A DNA stretch of 36,152 nt from an uncultured Clostridia bacterium (GTDB lineage Bacteria; Bacillota; Clostridia; Christensenellales; Borkfalkiaceae), in assembly GCA_944363255.1 (NCBI GenBank), contig CALVTZ010000001.1, forward strand, positions 1 to 36,152, read 5' to 3'. Positions 3,001 through 35,997 of this stretch are shown here, one piece after another; the stretch's first letter is position 1, and each line of letters begins with the position of its first letter. The notes under the pieces were generated by a model. That model had not been told where the DNA came from and did no database searches. It was given only the letters and a program-made list of their open reading frames with translations. A program made the translations under genes and the position numbers.

Positions 3001-6000
3001 TGCGCCCACAAGTTCCACCCCGTCGAGGTTGATACTCGTAAGCGACTTGTTGCCGTAGAAGGCGTACTCACGGATGAAGCGCGCCGACTTGGGCAGCACC
3101 ACCCGTTCCAACCCCTCCATGCGGTAGAAGGCATACTTCTGAATGTCCTCTACGCCCTCGGGAATGGTGACCGATTTGATATTTTCGTTGAAGCCGGGCA
3201 CCTTGTTTGCGTCGTAGTCCTCTTCGTCCACGGGAATGGTGTTATCCGTCGTGTACAAGCAGAAGGCGTATGCGCCGATATAGAGGATGCCCTCGTCGTC
3301 GGGAATGACGACGTCGCCGCCCAAGCCCTTGTAGGCTACGAGCATACGATTTTCAATGACGAAGGGATTTTTGACGTTGACGCGCAGCGTCGCACTCAGG
3401 TTGGAACCCTCCACGCGCAGCGTGATGGTCGCCGAGCCCTCGCGCAGCGCAGAGAGCACGCCCTGCTGCGTGACGGAGACGACGTCGGGCGAACCCGAGC
3501 TGTACTCCACCTTCGTGTACCTGTCCGCAACGTACCAGGGCGTCATCTCATAGGAGAGCTGGATGCGCTCGCCGGGGTACATGGAGACCTGGTGTGTGGT
3601 GCTGTTGGTCGTGGAGGAGTACACGGGCAGGGCGGAGATGTACATGGTCGCGCCCGTCGTGCCGATCTCGCTCTGCTGTGCGCCTCTGTCGTGGGCGAAC
3701 AGCGTCTTGAAGTAGGTGAAGCGAATGGATTGCAGTCTGCTGTTCTCGATGTCCTCTACGTCATTCTGCGAGAAGGGCGAAGCGGAGAAGGTGGCAGGCT
3801 CTGCGAGCGTTGCCGTGTCACGCGCTACGACGGTGACGCGGATGGTCGCACTTTTCAGCTCCGTCATGTAGTCCTGAACCTTGACCGTGGTGTTGCCCTT
3901 GCGCACACCGAGCACCTGGCCTTCCTTGACCAGCGCATAGCGCTCGTTTCCGACCGACCAATTCAGGTGCTTGAGGTAGTCCTTATCTGCGTCCACCGTG
4001 CTGTCGCTCGTGTACAGGTACTGCGTGAGGTCGACGATCTCGCCCTCGCGCACGGTGATCGACTTGAGCTCTTCGCTGTCTGCCGTGCCGTCCTGCGTGA
4101 ACTTGAAGTCGCCGCGGGTGCCGGGCAGCTCACACACGAAGATATTCTGGTTGAGTGCGTAGTCCTCCACCGCAAAGCCGATGGCGCTGGGAATGAGCTG
4201 ATCGTACTTGAGGTCGTTGAGGTAGTTCGTGATCTCGATGCGCACCTTGTTGTCCGTACCCTTTTCGCTGTAAACGGGAATGGGATTCTCGGAGAGGAAG
4301 GCATAGGAGGATTCGGACGTGAACGCAATGGGCGTGAGCGCCATGACGTACTGGTTATCGTACAGGGTGAGGTTGATATAGTAGCGATCCTTCTTGAGCG
4401 TGCGGTCGTACTCCTTCTCGTACGTTGCGCTCTTGATGATGGGCGCCTCGTCGTCGAGGACGAAGTTGAAGGAGAAGGTGTTGCGCGCGTTGGTGTCAAG
4501 CCCGGTGCGTTCGTAGTCGAGCTCGCCCACCATCTTGAACTCGTAGGAGCGGTTGTTGATGAGCCCCTGCTGCGCGCTCTTCATATCCAGCTGCTCGAAG
4601 TAAGGAATGGGGCCGCCGCCCTGGGAGTGCGCCTTGCGCGCGTCCCAAGCAATCTTTTCCCACATGACCTGCCCCGTCACGCTGTCCGTGATGGTGAAGG
4701 TCATCTTCTTTGCGTTGCGCAGAAGTCCCGCGTACACGACGGAGATGCCATCGATGTTGCCCAGCGAATTGGAGATCGCCGCGTGTTCCTGCGTGGCAGG
4801 GATGGGATCGTACGCCGAGGTGTCCATATCATACAGATAGGAGCCGAGCGGGATGATATAGTTGTAGAAGTAGGAGCCGTAAGGCGTGGTCGCGTAGTAG
4901 TCCGCCTTGAGCTTGTCCTCTTCGTCGATGGAGCCGTCGTGTGCCTCCGTCTCCACTTCGTAATACGTCTTATCGAAGAGGGGCGCCTGCGTCCAGTCGC
5001 CGTAGTAGGCAAGGAAGGGAATGTTGAGGTCGATCTCGCCCTGCGCCTTCGCCTTGAGCTTGACGAAGCCCTCTACGTACATACCGTAGGGGAAGAGGTC
5101 GTCGATGAGCTTCTTGTCTGCGTCGGTGAGCGTGTAGGTGACGGTGATCTTCGCCGTCATGTTGGGGGAAACGGTGACGACGCCGTTTGCATACGTTGCG
5201 CCCTCCCCTACCTGTACGGCGTGCGTGCCGCCCAGGATCTGCCCCATCTCTGCAATGCGCTCTTCATCTGCGGTGGAGACGGTCTCCGTCATGCCCACAA
5301 CGGACAGGTCGTATTCGAGCGTCTCTGCGGACATATTCACGACGTTGAAGGACATCGTGTACACGCCCTGGCGCTTGGGATCGTCCTTGAGTTCGAGCTT
5401 GGTGCGGTCGATGCCGTCCACCGTGAGGTATGCCTTGGAGTTTACCACCTTTTCGAGGCTGGCAAGCCCTGCGCCCTGCTTACGGGGCGAGTACGGGTTG
5501 CCCTCTTCGTTGAGCACGATGGTCGCCGTGGACATCATGAGCTGGTTCGCCATGACGGAGATCTCTTTCCACGTTGCCTCGGGGAACTTTTCGCGCAGGT
5601 ATTGACGGATGAGCACGACGATGCCGCAGAGGTTGGGCGTCGCCATGGAGGTGCCGCTCATCTCATCGTATGCGGGATTGCCGTCCCCGTCCACACCGTC
5701 GACTGCGGAGCGGATGGTGCCGCCGTGCGCCGTGATCTCGGGCTTGAGCTCAAGCGAGGGCGTGGGGCCCCAGCTGGAGAAGTCGCTCATGAAGGGGCCT
5801 GCCTGATTCTGGTAGGAGACTTCGAGCGTACCCGTTGCCTGCTGCGCAAGAATGGTGCCCACGCTGCGCGAGAGCGAAGCGGTGGGAATGTGGTCGGATT
5901 TGCCCATGGACATGAGGATATCGCCGTCCACGTTGTTGTAGATGAGGCAGCCGATCGCGCCGTTTGCCTGCGCGAGCTGCGACTTCTCTTCGAAGGTGTT

Positions 6001-25681: not shown

Positions 25682-25954
25682 TTATGCCTGCGTCTTTGCG
25701 TCCAGCCAGAGGGCGAGGATCTCTTCGGGCTGAAAGCCCGTGCAGCGCGCCACTTCCTCCCCGTCGCGGCAGACGATGAGGGTGGGAACGCGGTCGATGT
25801 GCAGCGCCGCCACCCGCTCCCCCGTCTCCTCGTTCACTTCGAGGTGTTCCACGTCCAGCCCGCGCTCCGCCGCAAGTTTTTTGACGAGCGGGAGCAGCGT
25901 ATAGCAGTTTGCGCACGACTCCCCGCTCACTTCAAGCAGTGTATAGTTTGCCAT
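25682..25954 (-). CDS. Thioredoxin-fold protein (CxxC = CANC), 90 aa
   Basis: MANYTLLEVSGESCANCYTLLPLV...RVPTLIV (cis-Pro motif). SD GGAGGG. The ATG shares one base with the pflA stop (TAATG at 25952-25956). Only the C-terminal 90 codons of track ORF 25682..26323 look real. Confidence 0.8.
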   Translation of the reverse strand: MANYTLLEVSGESCANCYTLLPLVKKLAAERGLDVEHLEVNEETGERVAALHIDRVPTLIVCRDGEEVARCTGFQPEEILALWLDAKTQA

Positions 25955-26682
25955 TACTCCCTCCCGTACTTGCCCGCGCGCAAAATGCGCTTGGCGTTTT
26001 CCACGCGCTCGCGTTCGGGCGGCTTCACCCCTTCGAGCGGATAGCTGCGCCCCAGCGCTCGGTACTTCTGCTCGCCCATGGTGTGATAGGGCAGCACCTC
26101 CACCTTCTCCACGTTGGAGAGGGTGTCGAGGAACGCCCGAAGGCGCAGCAGCGCCCCGTCGTCGTCCGTCAGCCCGGGCACGAGCACGTGCCGCACCCAC
26201 ATGGGCTTGCCCCGCTCGCTCAAAAAGCGGGCGAAGGCGAGGGGCGCCGCGTTCTCCCGCCCCGTGAGCTGCCTGTGCGCGTCCGCGTCGATGTGCTTGA
26301 TGTCGAGCAGGACGAGGTCGCACACCGCAAGCAGCTGCTCGTAGCGCGCGTCCCCCTGCTCAAAGCAGATGCCCGAGGTGTCCAGACAGGTGTGCACGCC
26401 CTTTTTTTTGAGCAGCGTGAACAGCTCGATGAGAAAATCAAGTTGGAGCAGCGGTTCGCCCCCCGTTGCGGTGACGCCGCCCCCGCCCGTGAAGTAGCTC
26501 TTATAGCGCATTGCCTCGAACGCGACTTCCTCGGCGGAGAGCATCTTGCCGCCCACCACCCAGGTATCGGGATTGTGGCAGTACTTGCAGCGCATGGGGC
26601 AGCCCTGAAAAAAGACGACGAACCGAATGCCCGGCCCGTCTACCGTGCCGAAGGATTCATAAGAATGGATATTCCCCGTCAT
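25954..26682 (-). CDS. pflA: Pyruvate formate-lyase activating enzyme (radical SAM)
   Basis: GTVDGPGIRFVVFFQGCPMRCKYCHNPDTW contains the CxxxCxxC motif. Start moved to ATG 26682 (MTGNIHSYES, SD GGAGGG 4 nt upstream). Confidence 0.9.
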   Translation of the reverse strand: MTGNIHSYESFGTVDGPGIRFVVFFQGCPMRCKYCHNPDTWVVGGKMLSAEEVAFEAMRYKSYFTGGGGVTATGGEPLLQLDFLIELFTLLKKKGVHTCLDTSGICFEQGDARYEQLLAVCDLVLLDIKHIDADAHRQLTGRENAAPLAFARFLSERGKPMWVRHVLVPGLTDDDGALLRLRAFLDTLSNVEKVEVLPYHTMGEQKYRALGRSYPLEGVKPPERERVENAKRILRAGKYGRE

Positions 26683-26715
26683 ACGCCCTCCCCTCTCTGC
26701 CCGCCCCGCGCGTGC

Positions 26716-26757
26716 GGGGAACAAAGGGCAGTTTCTACCTTACGATAAAAACTGCCC
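26716..26757 (-). terminator. Terminator-like hairpin inside the pfl leader (possible attenuator)
   Basis: In the minus-strand RNA, GGGCAGUUU (26757-26749) pairs with AAACUGCCC (26734-26726) around a 14-nt loop, followed by UUUGUU. It lies about 35 nt upstream of the pflA ATG. A second hairpin, CCCCGC-ACGC-GCGGGG (26719-26704), abuts the SD. Confidence 0.45.
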
Positions 26758-31669: not shown

Positions 31670-32416
31670 ATGAACAAGAACAACGCGACGCGATTTTTGA
31701 AAAGTTACAACCGCATCGAGGCGCAGCTCAAGCTGCTGTACAACTGCAATACGCGCGCCAACATGAGCTTTACCGACCTCGTGAAGCGGTGCAGCGACCT
31801 CGACATCACGGTGCGCCGCTACGCCGCCGAACTCATCGACTACGGCAAACTGCGCAACGCCATCGTGCACCGCGAGGTGGACGGAGATCGGGAGACGGTG
31901 ATCGCCGTGCCCTGCGACGAGGTCGTCTCCACCATCGAATTTATCGAGGCGATGCTCTGCCGCCCGCCCCGCCTCATCGACGCCATCAAGGTGAAGAAGG
32001 TCGCCTCCGTGTTTGCCGATCACCCCGTGCTCGACGCGGTGTCCGCCTTCCGCGAAAATTGGCAAAAGACGCTCATCGTGTACGACCACGGCAAAATGAT
32101 CGGCGTCATCAATTCCTACGGGCTGTATGCAGAGATCGAGGCGCGCGTGAAGGGCGGGGCGGACCTTGCGCACTTCTTCAAGGAGACGCTGTGCCGCGAC
32201 ATCGTGCACCCCGCCGAGATGGAGAAGTACCGCGTGATGGCAAAGGACGCCACCGTGTTCGAAGTGTTCGTCGCCTTTGAAGAGCAAAAGCACCTGCTCG
32301 CCGTCATTGTCACCGAGACGGGCACCTTCGGGGAGAAGGCGCTCAGCATCATCACCCCCTCCGACTTCCCCCGCATCAACCGCTTCCTCGAAAACTACAA
32401 CGTAAAGCCGTTTTGA
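31670..32416 (+). CDS. Two-domain protein: an N-terminal alpha-helical domain with a HEPN-like Rx4H motif (Swt1-like HEPN candidate) fused to a C-terminal CBS pair
   Basis: The N-domain reads FLKSYNRIEAQLKLLY...ELIDYGKLRNAIVHRE. Arg62 is at 31853-31855 and His67 at 31868-31870, with Asn following Arg as in many HEPN RNases. The C-terminal half is CBS-like (IKVKKVASVFADHPVLDAVSAFRENWQKTLIVYDHGKMIGVINSYGL ... MAKDATVFEVFVAFEEQKHLLAVIVTETGTFGEKALSIITPSDF). Strong promoter and SD. Confidence 0.8.
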   Translation: MNKNNATRFLKSYNRIEAQLKLLYNCNTRANMSFTDLVKRCSDLDITVRRYAAELIDYGKLRNAIVHREVDGDRETVIAVPCDEVVSTIEFIEAMLCRPPRLIDAIKVKKVASVFADHPVLDAVSAFRENWQKTLIVYDHGKMIGVINSYGLYAEIEARVKGGADLAHFFKETLCRDIVHPAEMEKYRVMAKDATVFEVFVAFEEQKHLLAVIVTETGTFGEKALSIITPSDFPRINRFLENYNVKPF

Positions 32417-32488
32417 GGTCGTTTTTCGGGGTTTGGGCAGAAAAAGAAAAAAAGTTGCAAAAAATTAAAATTTTTTTCAGAAAAAGTA

Positions 32489-32516
32489 TTGACAAATGAA
32501 AATTCTGTGCTATACT
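32489..32516 (+). promoter_or_regulatory. Near-consensus promoter with an extended -10 and an upstream A/T-tract (UP-like) region, driving the orphan RNA
   Basis: TTGACA (32489-32494), a 16-nt spacer, then TGc-TATACT (32508-32516). It is preceded by aaaaagaaaaaaagttgcaaaaaattaaaatttttttcagaaaaag (32441-32486). Confidence 0.75.
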
Positions 32517-32521
32517 GTAAG

Positions 32522-33159
32522 CACAACAAGGGAGCAAGCCCTAAGGAAGCCCCCCAAACGGAGTTCAAACGGAACGGATCCGGGACAACTTCCCACATCA
32601 AAACCGCAGCGGCTCACACGACCATATCTTCTGCAGGACGGGAAACCGTATATGGCACGGTAAGACAAAACGGTGGCGACGAAGAACGTTGAAAGGGAAA
32701 AGGACTGTGGAAGACGAAGGGCGGGAGACGAAGAGCGTTCCACCTGCAGACAAACGTTTGTCGTACGCAAACGACCGGGAAAGCAAGTGCCGAGAAAGCG
32801 AGCTTCTGTACGTTGCGTAGATTTGCATCGTCCACTCATCAGACGGATTTTTGTTCTAAGCTGCGCGGCGCAAACCGTTGTCCCCTATCGCGATGTAACG
32901 AGGTAGATAAGGATAGTCGGAGAGAATGCGCGCAATTCCCCTAATCAGGAACAGAGGCGTAGGAAGAGGGAGGCAGGCGCAAAAGGAAAAGAAACCCTTC
33001 TTTTCAAAGATTTGGAGTTTAACCAACAAGAACGAAAGTGATTTCGGTTAAAAGCGTAAGTGGATCTTAGAAAAGGACTTTTCGGAATCAACGATCTGTA
33101 TCCGATGAAAATGCTACGAAATAACGGCGGCGCACCGAAAGGTGCGCCGCTTATTTGTT
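32522..33159 (+). ncRNA. Candidate large (about 630 nt) structured noncoding RNA of unrecognised class
   Basis: Bounded by the promoter above and a strong intrinsic terminator. No ORF has an SD or protein-like composition. The sequence is purine-rich with many GNRA-capped hairpins, including ACGG-GAAA-CCGT (32638-32649) and TTAACC...GAAA-GTGA-TTTC-GGTTAA (33019-33051). There is long-range complementarity between TCTGCAGG (32630-32637) and CCTGCAGA (32743-32750). The 5' end is estimated at +/-4 nt. Confidence 0.55.
33127..33159 (+). terminator. Rho-independent terminator (first 3' end of the orphan RNA)
   Basis: A 10-bp stem, gcggcgcacc (33127-33136) with ggtgcgccgc (33141-33150), GAAA tetraloop, followed by TTATTTGTT. 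Confidence 0.85.
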
Positions 33160-33164
33160 CACAA

Positions 33165-33192
33165 ATTTTCTCGCAAAAAGTTGCGAGAAAAT
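33165..33192. other. 12-bp perfect hairpin (ATTTTCTCGCAA-AAAG-TTGCGAGAAAAT)
   Basis: 33165-33176 pairs with 33181-33192. It belongs to the GCAAA...TTTGC hairpin family reiterated through 33165-33524. Confidence 0.6.
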
Positions 33193-33210
33193 TTCGTGAG
33201 GGTAAAAGAC

Positions 33211-33256
33211 AACCCGCGGGCACGCCAAAGGGCTGACCGCGGGTTTTTCTTTCTTG
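33211..33256 (+). terminator. Second (backup, possibly bidirectional) intrinsic terminator
   Basis: aacccgcgg (33211-33219) pairs with ccgcgggtt (33237-33245), followed by TTTCTTTCTT on the plus strand. Confidence 0.7.
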
Positions 33257-33337
33257 GCGCGAATTTTTAGGGGCTTCCGATTATACTTCGCGCCAATTCA
33301 ATCTTTCCGCATAAGCGCAGGTATGCGCAAATGCTGT

Positions 33338-33386
33338 GCGCGGGCGCAAAAGCGTGGTTTTGCTTGCGCAGTTATTTAGAGCGAAA
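33338..33386. repeat. Copy 1 of a roughly 50-nt intergenic repeat containing a conserved hairpin
   Basis: gcgcgggcgcaaaagcgtggttttgcttgcgcagttatttagagcgaaa, with hairpin GCAAAA-gcgtgg-TTTTGC at 33346-33363. Confidence 0.7.
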
Positions 33387-33498
33387 GGCATCGCAAAAAG
33401 ATTTGCGTAGCAAAGATTTTTGCGAAGAGAAGCGGCAGGCATAAAAACGCACCCGCAAGCGGAGCGCGCGGGTGGTAACGATTGCCTTGCCGCGACGA

Positions 33499-33548
33499 GC
33501 GCGGGCGGAAAAGTGTGATTTTCCTTGCGCTAGTAATTTAGAGCGAAA
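33499..33548. repeat. Copy 2 of the roughly 50-nt intergenic repeat
   Basis: gcgcgggcggaaaagtgtgattttccttgcgctagtaatttagagcgaaa, with hairpin GGAAAA-gtgtga-TTTTCC at 33507-33524. It differs from copy 1 by a compensatory C:G to G:C swap in the stem. Confidence 0.7.
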
Positions 33549-33581
33549 AAATAACGCAAAAGAACTCCGCGGGGCGGAGTT
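33548..33581 (-). terminator. Intrinsic terminator of the asparaginase operon
   Basis: aactccgc (33563-33570) pairs with gcggagtt (33574-33581), immediately after stop TAG (33589-33587). On the minus strand it is followed by CTTTTGCGTTATTTTTT. Confidence 0.75.
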
Positions 33582-33586
33582 TTTTC

Positions 33587-34567
33587 CTAAAAAATATCGT
33601 GTTGGATGGGCGTGAGGAAGCGGGAGGCTACCCCGTCTTTGTCGCCTGCGAGCGCCCACATGAGCTTGCACGTTGCCGCCTCCAGCGTCATGCTGCGCGC
33701 CTCCAGCACGCTGCCGCAGGAGAGCAGCTTTCTGCCCACCTCGTAGCGGTCGAGCGCGCTCCCCTCCCGCTCCACCTGCGTGGTGCACAACACCGTGCCG
33801 CCGCCCGCGAGGTACTCCTTCAGGCGCGAGAAGAAGGCGTCGTTCTCATAGTTGGGCAGCCCGCCCGAGCCGAAGGACTCGATGATCAGCCCCTTGCACC
33901 GCTTGATATAGTCGAAGATATCCGTCTTGAGCCCGGGGATCATTTTGAGCACGAACACGCTGTCCTCCAGCTGCGAAAAGAACTTGGGCGGGCCCTTGGG
34001 CTTTTCCGTGAGGTAGTACACGGGCGCACCGTCGCGCATGATGGCGGTATCCGGATAGTCGATGCCCGAAAAGGCATTGTAGCTGCGCGTGCGCGTCTTT
34101 TTGGCGCGCGTGCCCAGGATCACCTTGCCGTCGAACACGATGTGCACGCCGCCCGCCCCGTCGTCTGCGCAGAAGGCGAAGGCGTTGAAGAGGTTGTCGC
34201 GCGCGTCCGTATCGCGCAAATACACCGACTTCTGCGAGCCCGTGAGCACGACGGGCTTGGGCGAATCCTGCACGAGGTAGGAGAGCGCCGCCGCCGTGTA
34301 CGCCATGGTGTCTGTGCCGTGCGTGACGACGAAGCCGTCGTAGCGGTCGTACTCCCGCGCAATGATGCCCGCAAGTTCCAGCCAATGTTTGGAGTAGATA
34401 TTCGTGCTGTCCAGGTGAAAGGGCTGCACCGCGTCCACCTTGGCGACGCCCGCGATCTCCGGCACGTAGGAGAGCAGTTCCTCGGGCGAAATGCGGGGCG
34501 CGAGCCCCGCCTCCGTGGGTTTGGAAGCGATCGTCCCGCCCGTTGCGATCAAGAGAATGTGTTTCAT
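33587..34567 (-). CDS. ansA: Type I L-asparaginase
   Basis: MKHILLIATGGTIAS (Thr nucleophile motif), VVTHGTDTMAYTAAALS. Length is 326 aa. SD GAAGGAAG. Confidence 0.9.
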   Translation of the reverse strand: MKHILLIATGGTIASKPTEAGLAPRISPEELLSYVPEIAGVAKVDAVQPFHLDSTNIYSKHWLELAGIIAREYDRYDGFVVTHGTDTMAYTAAALSYLVQDSPKPVVLTGSQKSVYLRDTDARDNLFNAFAFCADDGAGGVHIVFDGKVILGTRAKKTRTRSYNAFSGIDYPDTAIMRDGAPVYYLTEKPKGPPKFFSQLEDSVFVLKMIPGLKTDIFDYIKRCKGLIIESFGSGGLPNYENDAFFSRLKEYLAGGGTVLCTTQVEREGSALDRYEVGRKLLSCGSVLEARSMTLEAATCKLMWALAGDKDGVASRFLTPIQHDIF

Positions 34568-34577
34568 GGTTCTTCCT

Positions 34578-35135
34578 TCAAAGCAGTCTTTTTAAGATGG
34601 CGTCGAGCTGTGCTTGCGTTGCGCCCAGCCGCAGCAGCGCTTCCCGCGCGCCCCCTTCCCCGCGGCAGAGGGCGATGAGCAGCGTTCCCAGCCCCTCTGC
34701 GCCCCGTCCGTAAAAGAGCACGCATCCCCGCTCCCGCGCGAGCACGGGCAGGGCGTCCTCCGCGGGCACGCACGCCGTCACGCCGTACGCCGCAAGCGCG
34801 GCGCGTTCGGGCAGCACTTCCGCCGCCAAGCCCACCTGAAAGCGGGTGTAGCGCTTGTTGTCGTACCGCACGCCGCCCAGCTCGCAGCACGCGACGCCCG
34901 CCGCGACCAGCTTTCTCGCACCCGCAGGCGCGGCGACCTCCTTGAGCAGCGCCCGATCGTACGGGGGCGTATCCCCCTCGTACACGCGCTCGACGCGCCC
35001 GAGTTGCAGACAATTTCTGCTGCCCACGGGGGCGAGCAGCAGCGCCCCTTGTCCGGCGGGAAAGGGACAGCCGTACCAGTATGTACGGTCTACGATATTT
35101 TCATCCTCCACGAAGCGGAGGGCAACGCAGCGCAC
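34578..35135 (-). CDS. Hypothetical protein (185 aa), translationally coupled to the upstream nucleotidyltransferase
   Basis: A GTG start at 35135 lies 4 nt after the NTase stop, with a GGTGAGG SD inside the NTase 3' end. Composition is protein-like (MRCVALRFVEDENIVDRTYWYGCPFPAGQG...). I recognise no motif. Confidence 0.55.
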   Translation of the reverse strand: MRCVALRFVEDENIVDRTYWYGCPFPAGQGALLLAPVGSRNCLQLGRVERVYEGDTPPYDRALLKEVAAPAGARKLVAAGVACCELGGVRYDNKRYTRFQVGLAAEVLPERAALAAYGVTACVPAEDALPVLARERGCVLFYGRGAEGLGTLLIALCRGEGGAREALLRLGATQAQLDAILKRLL

Positions 35136-35139
35136 CGCC

Positions 35140-35997
35140 TCACCACTCGTTGGGGAAGGGCGGGCGTTCGCGCGTCCACCAATCCTCGTAAAACTTCACG
35201 TACTGCGAGCAGTTCTCGCTCACGTCAAAGGTGAGCGGCAGGCTCGTCTGCTGCAAGAACGCCCCCACGAACGCCTCGCACCGCTCCTCCGTGACCTCGC
35301 GCAGGAAGTCCGCACCCAACTGAAGAATGTTTTCGGGGCGATGGGCGCAGGCGCGCACCGTCTCCTCGAGGCGGCGGTTGCAGGGAAAGAGCGTCTCGTT
35401 CTCCAACAGGATGAGGCGGTACACGCTGTACACGATCTCCTGCGCGAGATGGGCGCGCATATACGCGTTTTCCGCAGGCACGCACTTGAGAAAGTACCCG
35501 CGGTTGAGGGCGAGATTGGCGTTGAAGCACCTGCGCTTCTCCTCCTTCTCCCCCACGGGATAGGCGGCGATCGCCTGCACGATGGCGGGGATGTCCTCGT
35601 CCGTGGTGTAGATGACCTGCGCCTTGACGAAGGCGTTGCGCGTGGGCTCGCTGCCCCCCGCTGCGGCGGCAAGCAGCTGTTCCTTGGTCTTGAACTTCAC
35701 GTCGAAGTACCCGCCCTCGTAGGTGCAGTGCCCCGTGACGACCTCTGCAAGCCGCCCCGCCGCGGCGAGGGCGCGGTGGCGCTCCTGCGAGACGACGATG
35801 ACCGCGTCCACGTCCGAATCGACGCGCGCGCCCCCTTTGACGATGGAGCCGTCCAGAACGATGGCGATGAGATCGGGCATGGTCGCAAGGTAGTATTCCC
35901 TGAGTTTTTCGATGGACTGCTGATGGTGCTTGTACCATGCCGTTGACCAGCTTTGCGGGGGCGTCTTCCCCTTTACACAGGCAGCCGAGCGAGGCAA
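35140..35997 (-). CDS. Pol-beta-superfamily nucleotidyltransferase (KNTase/ANT-like two-domain architecture); start uncertain
   Basis: LDGSIVKGGARVDSDVDAVIVVS is a GS-x10-DxD motif, with a third acidic residue in GGYFDVKF and a helical C-terminal domain. No in-frame ATG lies upstream of the helix HHQQSIEKLREYY; the only candidate is the TTG at 35997. Confidence 0.7.
   Translation of the reverse strand: MPRSAACVKGKTPPQSWSTAWYKHHQQSIEKLREYYLATMPDLIAIVLDGSIVKGGARVDSDVDAVIVVSQERHRALAAAGRLAEVVTGHCTYEGGYFDVKFKTKEQLLAAAAGGSEPTRNAFVKAQVIYTTDEDIPAIVQAIAAYPVGEKEEKRRCFNANLALNRGYFLKCVPAENAYMRAHLAQEIVYSVYRLILLENETLFPCNRRLEETVRACAHRPENILQLGADFLREVTEERCEAFVGAFLQQTSLPLTFDVSENCSQYVKFYEDWWTRERPPFPNEW

Follow-up and report, generated by a model that had tools for sequence, protein, structure and literature searches.

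What is encoded in the 1.17 kb without a credible gene that lie between the gene of a CBS-domain protein and an asparaginase gene in an uncultured Clostridia bacterium of the family Borkfalkiaceae? The stretch occupies positions 32417-33586 of a 36,152-nucleotide (nt) piece of contig CALVTZ010000001.1 (assembly GCA_944363255.1), which was analysed as a whole and is called the window here. A preliminary description, made from the letters of the DNA, had pointed to a gene-free stretch of lower GC content between these coordinates and had proposed within it an orphan transcription unit, about 630 nt from promoter to terminator and with no open reading frame (ORF), a candidate large structured RNA of unrecognised class. 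All the elements it named were located where it had placed them. The stretch is indeed present, with a GC content of 0.40-0.54 against 0.60-0.68 in its flanks, and its plus strand is strongly purine-rich (AT skew up to 0.48), as had also been described. There is firm support for an element that is real, conserved, non-coding and highly structured and that carries promoter and terminator signals, and a new class of structured non-coding RNA (ncRNA), without a match in Rfam 15 or the literature searched, is the best reading of it. We put at roughly 0.6 the probability that positions 32523-33160 of the plus strand specify a stand-alone structured ncRNA of about 640 nt that is probably a partner, target or regulator of the RNase-like protein encoded directly upstream.

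The case begins with conservation. About 150 proteins are close homologues of the upstream one (52-82% identity); the contigs that carry them differ in neighbouring genes, yet each has a gene-free stretch of 1-1.9 kb after the gene, and BLASTN reveals collinear conserved blocks within these stretches. A scan of one genome per species gave 80 protein loci, from Candidatus Gallimonas, Borkfalkia, Protoclostridium and other Clostridia of the chicken and human gut, and iterated nhmmer searches detect the RNA at 74 of the 81 species-level loci that were usable, always on the strand of the gene. The inferred RNA start lies 70-294 nt past the stop codon (median 111), and the homologous unit is 583-931 nt long. 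A second metagenome scan, independent of the protein, relied on an RNA motif pattern that was too loose, and nhmmer was used to sort its matches; the 120 loci listed include at least 12 true copies, ten with the protein gene directly upstream, one cut by a contig end and one detached from the gene. The detached copy (L136) follows an ABC-transporter gene and a terminator, and retains the same promoter. No true copy occurs among the 96 viral contigs that match the motif pattern, BLAST found none in phage or plasmid records, and a mobile-element, phage or plasmid origin was rejected for lack of matches in those records. At one Borkfalkia locus, the protein-RNA pair is preceded, at a distance of about 3.2 kb, by the 3' end of a 23S rRNA gene (1-210 of L037) and a 5S rRNA gene (459-574).

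The limits of the unit are set by transcription signals, which are themselves conserved. Across the 74-sequence alignment, the best conserved columns are those of the upstream (UP) A/T tract, the -35 and -10 hexamers and the first 12 nt of the predicted transcript (ACAACAAGGGAG), which would start near 32523. The promoter fits 11 of 12 consensus positions (TTGACA-16-TGcTATACT), and a consensus scan finds three promoter-like sites in 3.2 kb where 0.9 would be expected. The first of two terminators in the preliminary description, a GC stem with a GAAA loop and a T-tract, has 11 pairs; its stem is 94% paired across 57 sequences and changed on both sides at 8 of the 11 pairs, and it would form the 3' end of the RNA. 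The second, a hairpin and T-run at about 33213-33255, exists in the window, and we exclude it from the conserved unit because nothing in the alignment is conserved beyond about 33160. The unit runs from 32440 to 33160 on the plus strand, and the promoter-to-terminator arrangement first proposed is borne out, with conserved signals at both ends and no coding signal in between. Directly 3' of the RNA terminator is a perfect 14-bp inverted repeat (33163-33176 and 33181-33194, AAATTTTCTCGCAA and TTGCGAGAAAATTT), outside the conserved unit, which may be operator-like or form a further hairpin.

Codon-like conservation, which the preliminary description had named as evidence against an RNA gene, was looked for in the homologues and not found. 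Only 20% of the gaps in pairwise projections of the 74-sequence alignment are divisible by three, gap frequency declines smoothly with length, and column entropy in the same alignment carries no lag-3 signal. ORFs of at least 30 amino acids (aa) are common on both strands, as base composition predicts, and none is conserved in position or frame among the homologues; those in the window's gene-free stretch are chance ORFs of 55-109 aa. Coding potential was thus rejected on gap lengths, entropy periodicity and ORF conservation together.

Nor does the element resemble a catalogued RNA. No Rfam 15 family reaches its gathering score in the element's part of the window, none matches positions 32300-33700 at E values up to 10 with permissive cmscan filters, and none matches the RNA in 24 homologous loci. 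The covariance models of OLE, ROOL, GOLLD, raiA and HEARO, for which the preliminary description had asked, remain unmatched, as do those of signal recognition particle (SRP) RNA (RF00169 and RF01854) in window and homologues, and the same Rfam search readily detects SRP RNA beside distant homologues of the upstream protein. ARAGORN reports no tRNA or tmRNA gene in the window, Tandem Repeats Finder (TRF; minimum score 30) no tandem repeat in the RNA, and literature searches no description of the family. The label of unrecognised class thus survives, as does that of a large structured RNA, given conservation in more than 80 loci, non-coding character and significant covariation in both halves of the molecule and in the helices P1 and LR.

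The structure model combines a covariation ranking (G-test with average product correction on a 71-sequence MAFFT alignment) with clade-wise inspection of the alignments. Watson-Crick-compatible pairs head the ranking, with pairs of the 3' rod at the top, whereas RNAalifold, run on the full-length nhmmer or MAFFT alignment, recovered only the pseudoknot PK, the terminator and parts of the rod. About 15 predicted helices have the support of compensatory changes (Table 1). The RNA would be transcribed from its own strong sigma-70-type promoter with UP element, end at the conserved intrinsic terminator, and fold into a 5' domain (about 290 nt) that P1 closes and PK locks, a hypervariable linker and a 120-nt rod, with LR returning the conserved 3' tail to the 5' domain. 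Apart from the promoter and the transcript start, islands of conservation lie around 32630, at 32725-32750, 32760-32785 and 32810-32825, in the block 32977-33125 and in the terminator stem.

Table 1. Coordinates of the RNA unit, its predicted structural elements and the flanking genes (paired fractions for P2' and P2 refer to alignment A4)
Feature	Position	Strand	Remarks
CBS-protein gene	31670-32416	+	248 aa; from ORF calls
UP-like A/T-rich tract	32440-32488	+	Column conservation among the highest in the 74-sequence alignment
Promoter	32489-32516	+	-35 TTGACA 32489-32494, 16-nt spacer, TG-extended -10 TATACT 32511-32516; from consensus scan
P1, 5' strand	32524-32535	+	CAAC followed by AAGGGAGC; pairs with 32802-32815
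P2'	32545-48/32738-41	+	GGAA with TTCC; 90% paired
P2	32550-55/32719-25	+	5' strand CCCCCC; 71% paired; per-sequence complementarity
Pa stem	32622-27/32650-55	+	Encloses a 10-nt bulge and Hp1
PK, 5' strand	32630-37	+	TCTGCAGG; pairs with 32743-50
Hp1	32638-49	+	Hairpin, GNRA-capped, ACGG-GAAA-CCGT
Asymmetric loop	32727-37	+	Between the 3' strands of P2 and P2'; consensus ACGAAAC, in the window GACGAAGAGCG
PK, 3' strand	32743-50	+	CCTGCAGA; pairs with the Pa bulge
Hp2	32755-32773	+	Stem 32755-60/32768-73; conserved loop uCGUACg
GGGAAAG motif	32777-32783	+	Near-invariant, without a covarying partner
P1, 3' strand	32802-32815	+	Closes the ~290-nt 5' domain
LR, 5' strand	32816-32824	+	CGTAG..TT; pairs with 33110-33118
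Hypervariable linker	32826-32973	+	Length and sequence unconserved; source of most of the size range
3' domain	32974-33097	+	Irregular rod of ~120 nt; covariation in 57 sequences
D1	32974-80/33091-97	+	Rod helix
D2	32986-91/33078-83	+	Rod helix
D2b	32998-33005/33070-77	+	Rod helix
D3	33007-13/33062-68	+	Rod helix
D4	33018-24/33046-52	+	Rod helix
LR, 3' strand	33110-33118	+	In the conserved tail (consensus GAUGAAAAUGCCACGAAAUAAC); compensating versions
Intrinsic terminator	33126-33160	+	11-bp GC stem 33126-33136/33141-33151, GAAA loop, U-rich tail; from scan and covariation
Asparaginase gene	33587-34567	-	From ORF calls

Both halves were compared with shuffled and slid controls. For the 3' domain with the terminator (57 sequences, 46 pairs), 85.1% of cells are paired against 72.8% after shuffling and 36-54% in slid controls, and 377 cells are changed on both sides against 140. 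For the 5' domain (20 sequences of the Gallimonas clade, 42 pairs including PK), the figures are 90.0% against 84.7% (35-47% when slid) and 64 two-side-changed cells against 24.8. In neither test did any of 500 shuffles match the observation. G-U pairs also exceed A-C pairs (206:132 and 42:24), and this excess, together with the orientation of promoter and terminator, favours the plus strand.

Within the 5' domain, P1 appears in clade-specific compensatory forms (CAAACAG/CTGTTTG, CAAACAA/TTGTTTG and ACAACGAAAC/GTTTTGTTGT) and is 87.6% paired in alignment A4; over 70 sequences its duplex energy averages -9.2 kcal/mol, against -4.8 kcal/mol with shuffled partners (median z -2.4). In P2, the pair 32553:32724 ranks third in covariation strength across the whole RNA (AT19 GC15 TA12 CG8). 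Pa and Hp1 are 95% and 87% paired, with three pairs in each altered on both sides, and sequence variants of this region were also observed; constrained minimum free energy (MFE) folding gave the spanning Pa stem in 32 of 65 sequences and 31% of shuffles, with an anchor expression that sometimes matched the wrong strand, and because that anchor was partly misplaced Pa rests on the 5'-domain pair counts. Hp2 is 98% paired, three of its five pairs are altered on both sides, and its stem occurs in variant forms (for example, GTAAGTC/GAGCTTAC). The near-invariant GGGAAAG motif that follows could possibly make a tertiary or protein contact. In one Gallimonas species (L016, about 5080-5125), a ACAAATCGTTTCGCGTAC segment that reaches from the last part of the PK 3' strand into the first part of Hp2 is tandemly duplicated.

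Several pairings and motifs of this domain had been picked out by eye. The 8-bp pairing of 32630-32637 with 32743-32750 is real: it is PK, paired at 99.4% in 20 sequences, 90-100% in 40 and 69-94% in all 71, with two-sided exchanges of C:G to U:A and A:U to G:C. As it crosses Pa, P2 and P2', it is a pseudoknot. The GAACG/CGTTC helix thought to nest within it (32684-88 with 32736-40) fares worse, being complementary in the window and 25-61% paired in relatives, and its 3' strand overlaps the better-supported P2'. The motif GACGAAG does occur three times (32678, 32713 and 32727), and only the third copy falls in a conserved element. A protein-sponge role, suggested on account of frequent GGA triplets, is not upheld: the conserved GGA motifs lie mostly within covarying helices, and their being mostly base-paired makes a CsrA-type sponge unlikely.

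The long-range helix LR, which connects the 3' tail with the point where the strand leaves the 5' domain, exists in six complementary versions: CGTGG/CCACG, CATGG/CCATG, CGTAG/CTACG, GACGGATA/TATTCGTC, GTGGTTTTT/AAAAATCAC and CATGAT/ATCATG. The window carries the third, CGTAG/CTACG, which differs from the consensus CGTGG/CCACG by one pair, A-T for G-C. The rod that precedes the tail is interrupted by conserved purine-rich internal loops, namely AAAAG, an GAAAGAAA bulge, AAAAGnGUAAG and GGAAU.

The obvious candidate partner is the protein encoded directly upstream. Its C-terminal ~150 residues form a CBS pair (Pfam CBS, E 1.2e-5, 26 bits against a cut-off of 24, with matching profiles in the PDB), fold matches to CBS pairs reach a probability of 1.00, and several of the matched structures contain AMP, ADP, SAM or c-di-AMP as ligand. 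An AlphaFold2 model of the full protein has a predicted local distance difference test (pLDDT) score of 85.6, and in fold searches with it the CBS pair prevails. The N-terminal ~100 residues are predicted to be helical (model pLDDT 84.5) and contain the motif R62-N-A-I-V-H67 (LRNAIVH, RNxxxH), invariant in 26 close homologues and in 20 homologues down to 28% identity. Rx4-6H is the signature of HEPN RNases, and a HEPN-like N-terminal domain is plausible. The family counts 1024 cluster representatives at E <1e-10, annotated only as 'CBS domain-containing protein' where named at all, and neither PADLOC (E 0.0022) nor NCBIfam returned anything useful for the protein.

More distant relatives of the protein occupy a distinctive set of neighbourhoods. 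Some are divergent from the gene of the bacterial large SRP RNA, 110-200 nt away, in three genomic contexts; the SRP RNA genes lie on the minus strand at 3112-3377 of L305, 266-531 of L306, 3032-3298 of L307 and 2623-2887 of L312. At L305 and L307, ileS comes next, L309 lies beside rpmH-rnpA-yidC-jag and L311 beside three tRNA genes. After 3801 in L311 and after 3714 in L312, there are apparent operons with an rRNA methyltransferase, a pseudouridine synthase and FtsJ. Such RNA and translation neighbourhoods would fit an RNA-directed activity of the protein lineage.

Gene and RNA have stayed together while their surroundings changed. Upstream neighbours fall into 19 protein clusters among 71 RNA-bearing loci and downstream neighbours into 33 among 61, with the gene-RNA junction kept throughout. 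In 64 of 71 linked loci there is no terminator-like hairpin between the stop codon of the gene and the promoter of the RNA, whereas a strong terminator ends the gene in five of seven loci without the RNA; as the gene usually lacks a terminator of its own, read-through co-transcription with a strong internal promoter is likely. The functional pair suggested in the preliminary description is thereby supported, at the level of genetic linkage only. Transcription, protein binding, RNase activity and any physiological role are inferred. The RNA could act as a scaffold, as a gate or inhibitor, or as a dedicated substrate of the dimer-prone protein, whose CBS pair, sensing adenine nucleotides, would couple RNase activity to the nucleotide state of the cell. 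That the RNA works with the CBS/HEPN-like protein in this manner, with the CBS pair giving nucleotide control, is a tentative reading to which we give somewhat less than even odds. A fuller version, in which the two form a new ribonucleoprotein (RNP) whose RNA gates, scaffolds or targets a nucleotide-sensing RNase and which arose in one family of gut Clostridia from a widespread housekeeping RNase lineage, appears rather doubtful to us.

Several observations weigh against a structured RNA paired with an RNase-like protein. The transcript and both of its ends are predictions from promoter and terminator signals, and the RNA is known from one bacterial family only. Single-sequence MFE compared with shuffles is uninformative (z -0.9 on the plus strand, -1.45 on the minus strand), and because thermodynamic stability alone is not above chance the evidence for structure is comparative; the controls for covariation, in turn, correct for phylogeny only in part. 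The HEPN label given earlier to the protein has the RNxxxH motif in its favour, while the profile match falls short: HEPN_RiboL-PSP matches at E 0.006 and 16.9 bits, below the Pfam cut-off of 28.4 (sub-threshold matches recur in 18 of 26 family members, best E 3.5e-4), and Foldseek with the N-terminal domain gives no significant match, the best template-modelling (TM) scores being 0.43-0.49 to the HEPN toxins 7ae9 and 5yep at E >5. The RNA is absent downstream of the protein gene in seven loci, whose proteins diverge most within the clade (54-58% identity), and one RNA copy, L136, has no protein gene upstream. Distant homologues (about 30-43% identity) lack this RNA beside them, so the protein family is far wider than the RNA and does not generally need it, and the RNA is a clade-specific addition. 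Gene-RNA adjacency could then be inherited synteny.

In the strongest alternative, the RNA would act independently of its neighbour, as an RNA-only assembly or the core of an RNP with other proteins, in the manner of OLE, ROOL and GOLLD, next to a gene with which it was inherited. We consider this possible, though unlikely. The RNA has a conserved strong promoter and terminator of its own and can stand apart from the gene, the protein occurs without it throughout the much wider family, and the near-invariant unpaired GGGAAAG, GUAAG and GGAAU could bind any factor. Against this, adjacency is kept in about 90% of loci despite repeatedly reshuffled flanks, and the usual absence of a terminator between gene and RNA suggests co-transcription by read-through.

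It is much less probable that the locus is a toxin-antitoxin (TA) or abortive-infection module, with a HEPN-like toxin neutralised by the RNA or a defence function related to that of DS-11, a protein of CBS and HEPN domains that protects E. coli from phage (PMC13092281). Toxins are often HEPN RNases, and a strong separate promoter would yield RNA in excess over protein. Protein identity, however, tracks genus, so inheritance looks vertical and unlike the patchy spread of mobile elements; no copies were found in phage or plasmid records or in the viral contigs that match the motif pattern; there is no PADLOC match of note; and distant homologues sit in housekeeping RNA and translation neighbourhoods. 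As an RNA of type III TA systems in particular, the element was rejected, since TRF detects no repeats, the RNA lies downstream rather than upstream of the gene, and 64 of the 71 loci lack an intervening terminator-like hairpin.

The remaining alternatives are weaker still. The element could be no independent gene at all, but a 3' untranslated region (UTR) or cis-regulatory tail of the CBS-protein gene, the mRNA of a small protein or a decayed pseudogene, and the likely read-through from the gene and the chance ORFs would be in keeping with this. We judge it very improbable: no part of the element is better conserved than its internal promoter, which is retained in the copy detached from the gene, indels and substitutions show no codon pattern, no ORF is conserved, and the helices covary. 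Finally, a diverged or expanded form of a known RNA (SRP RNA, OLE, ROOL, GOLLD, RNase P or a group II intron remnant), considered because distant protein homologues adjoin the large SRP RNA gene in three contexts and because the size falls within the OLE/ROOL range, is hardly credible, as permissive cmscan of the window and seven diverse homologues for these families gave not even a weak match, ARAGORN detects neither a tmRNA nor anything tRNA-like, the RNA is placed and oriented with respect to the protein gene in a way unlike SRP RNA, and neither a conserved SRP domain IV-like motif nor any other SRP signal appears in the RNA.

Other features of the window deserve a brief record. Within the gene-free stretch, two direct repeats of about 50 nt (33338-33386 and 33499-33548; 88-94% identical, separated by 161 nt) have hairpins on their flanks, and a terminator-like site on the minus strand (33581-33563) is probably the end of the asparaginase gene; none of these repeats, hairpins or the site is conserved along with the RNA. 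Beyond the asparaginase gene, a minus-strand nucleotidyltransferase gene (35140-35997; NTP_transf_2/Polbeta) is followed by a 185-aa ORF without a Pfam match (34578-35135, minus strand), and the two may be an MNT-type pair. A ZMP/ZTP riboswitch (RF01750; 26747-26829, minus strand) scores 58.2 bits against a gathering score of 39 and lies just upstream of the minus-strand ORF 25954-26724.

Very large, intricately folded bacterial RNAs are rare, with OLE, ROOL, GOLLD and few others as examples, and those known have revealed unexpected biology such as RNA-only cages and stress-response RNPs. The class described here adds a two-domain, pseudoknotted architecture in which many unpaired nucleotides are near-invariant, and it comes with a specific candidate for a protein partner. 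Since that partner joins a CBS nucleotide sensor to a probable, HEPN-like RNase, the function of a large RNA becomes a testable question. The finding also draws attention to a large CBS/HEPN-like family in RNA and translation neighbourhoods across Clostridia. Its significance is limited by the narrow host range, mostly uncultured bacteria of the chicken and human gut.

Among known systems, OLE (RF01071) is similar in kind: an ncRNA of about 600 nt from anaerobic Firmicutes that is rich in covarying helices and in highly conserved, purine-rich nucleotides left unpaired, has a promoter and a terminator of its own, and is genetically linked to the gene of a partner protein, which for OLE means an RNP with OapA/B/C. 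The present RNA differs in that it does not match the OLE model, is restricted to Gallimonas, Borkfalkia and relatives, and has as its partner a soluble CBS/HEPN-like protein rather than OapA. ROOL and GOLLD are large ornate RNAs that form RNA-only multimers (PMC12286853). They share with our RNA a large, ornate multi-domain secondary structure, here predicted; neither model matches it, and it has no prophage, phage or tRNA context. HEARO/omega RNA with IscB and omega RNA with TnpB likewise place a structured RNA of a few hundred nt beside a nuclease gene, whereas here there is no RuvC or HNH protein, no transposon ends, no HEARO match and no evident guide segment.

Two further comparisons concern the protein partner. 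Type III TA systems such as ToxIN resemble this locus in the tight linkage of an RNA gene to the gene of a putative endoribonuclease and in a likely excess of RNA. Their antitoxin consists of short tandem repeats that precede the toxin gene, a terminator separating the two, whereas the present RNA is repeat-free, 640 nt long, complex in its fold and downstream of the gene, and its inheritance looks vertical. In DS-11, an anti-phage system from the DefensePredictor work, both domains of the single CBS+HEPN protein are required for defence (PMC13092281). The available part of that report mentions no RNA partner for DS-11 (PMC13092281), and the neighbourhood here looks like one of housekeeping rather than defence. 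Compared by domain types alone, the two nevertheless share the same pair in one small protein, and for DS-11 its authors propose a HEPN nuclease controlled by the nucleotides that its CBS domains bind (PMC13092281).

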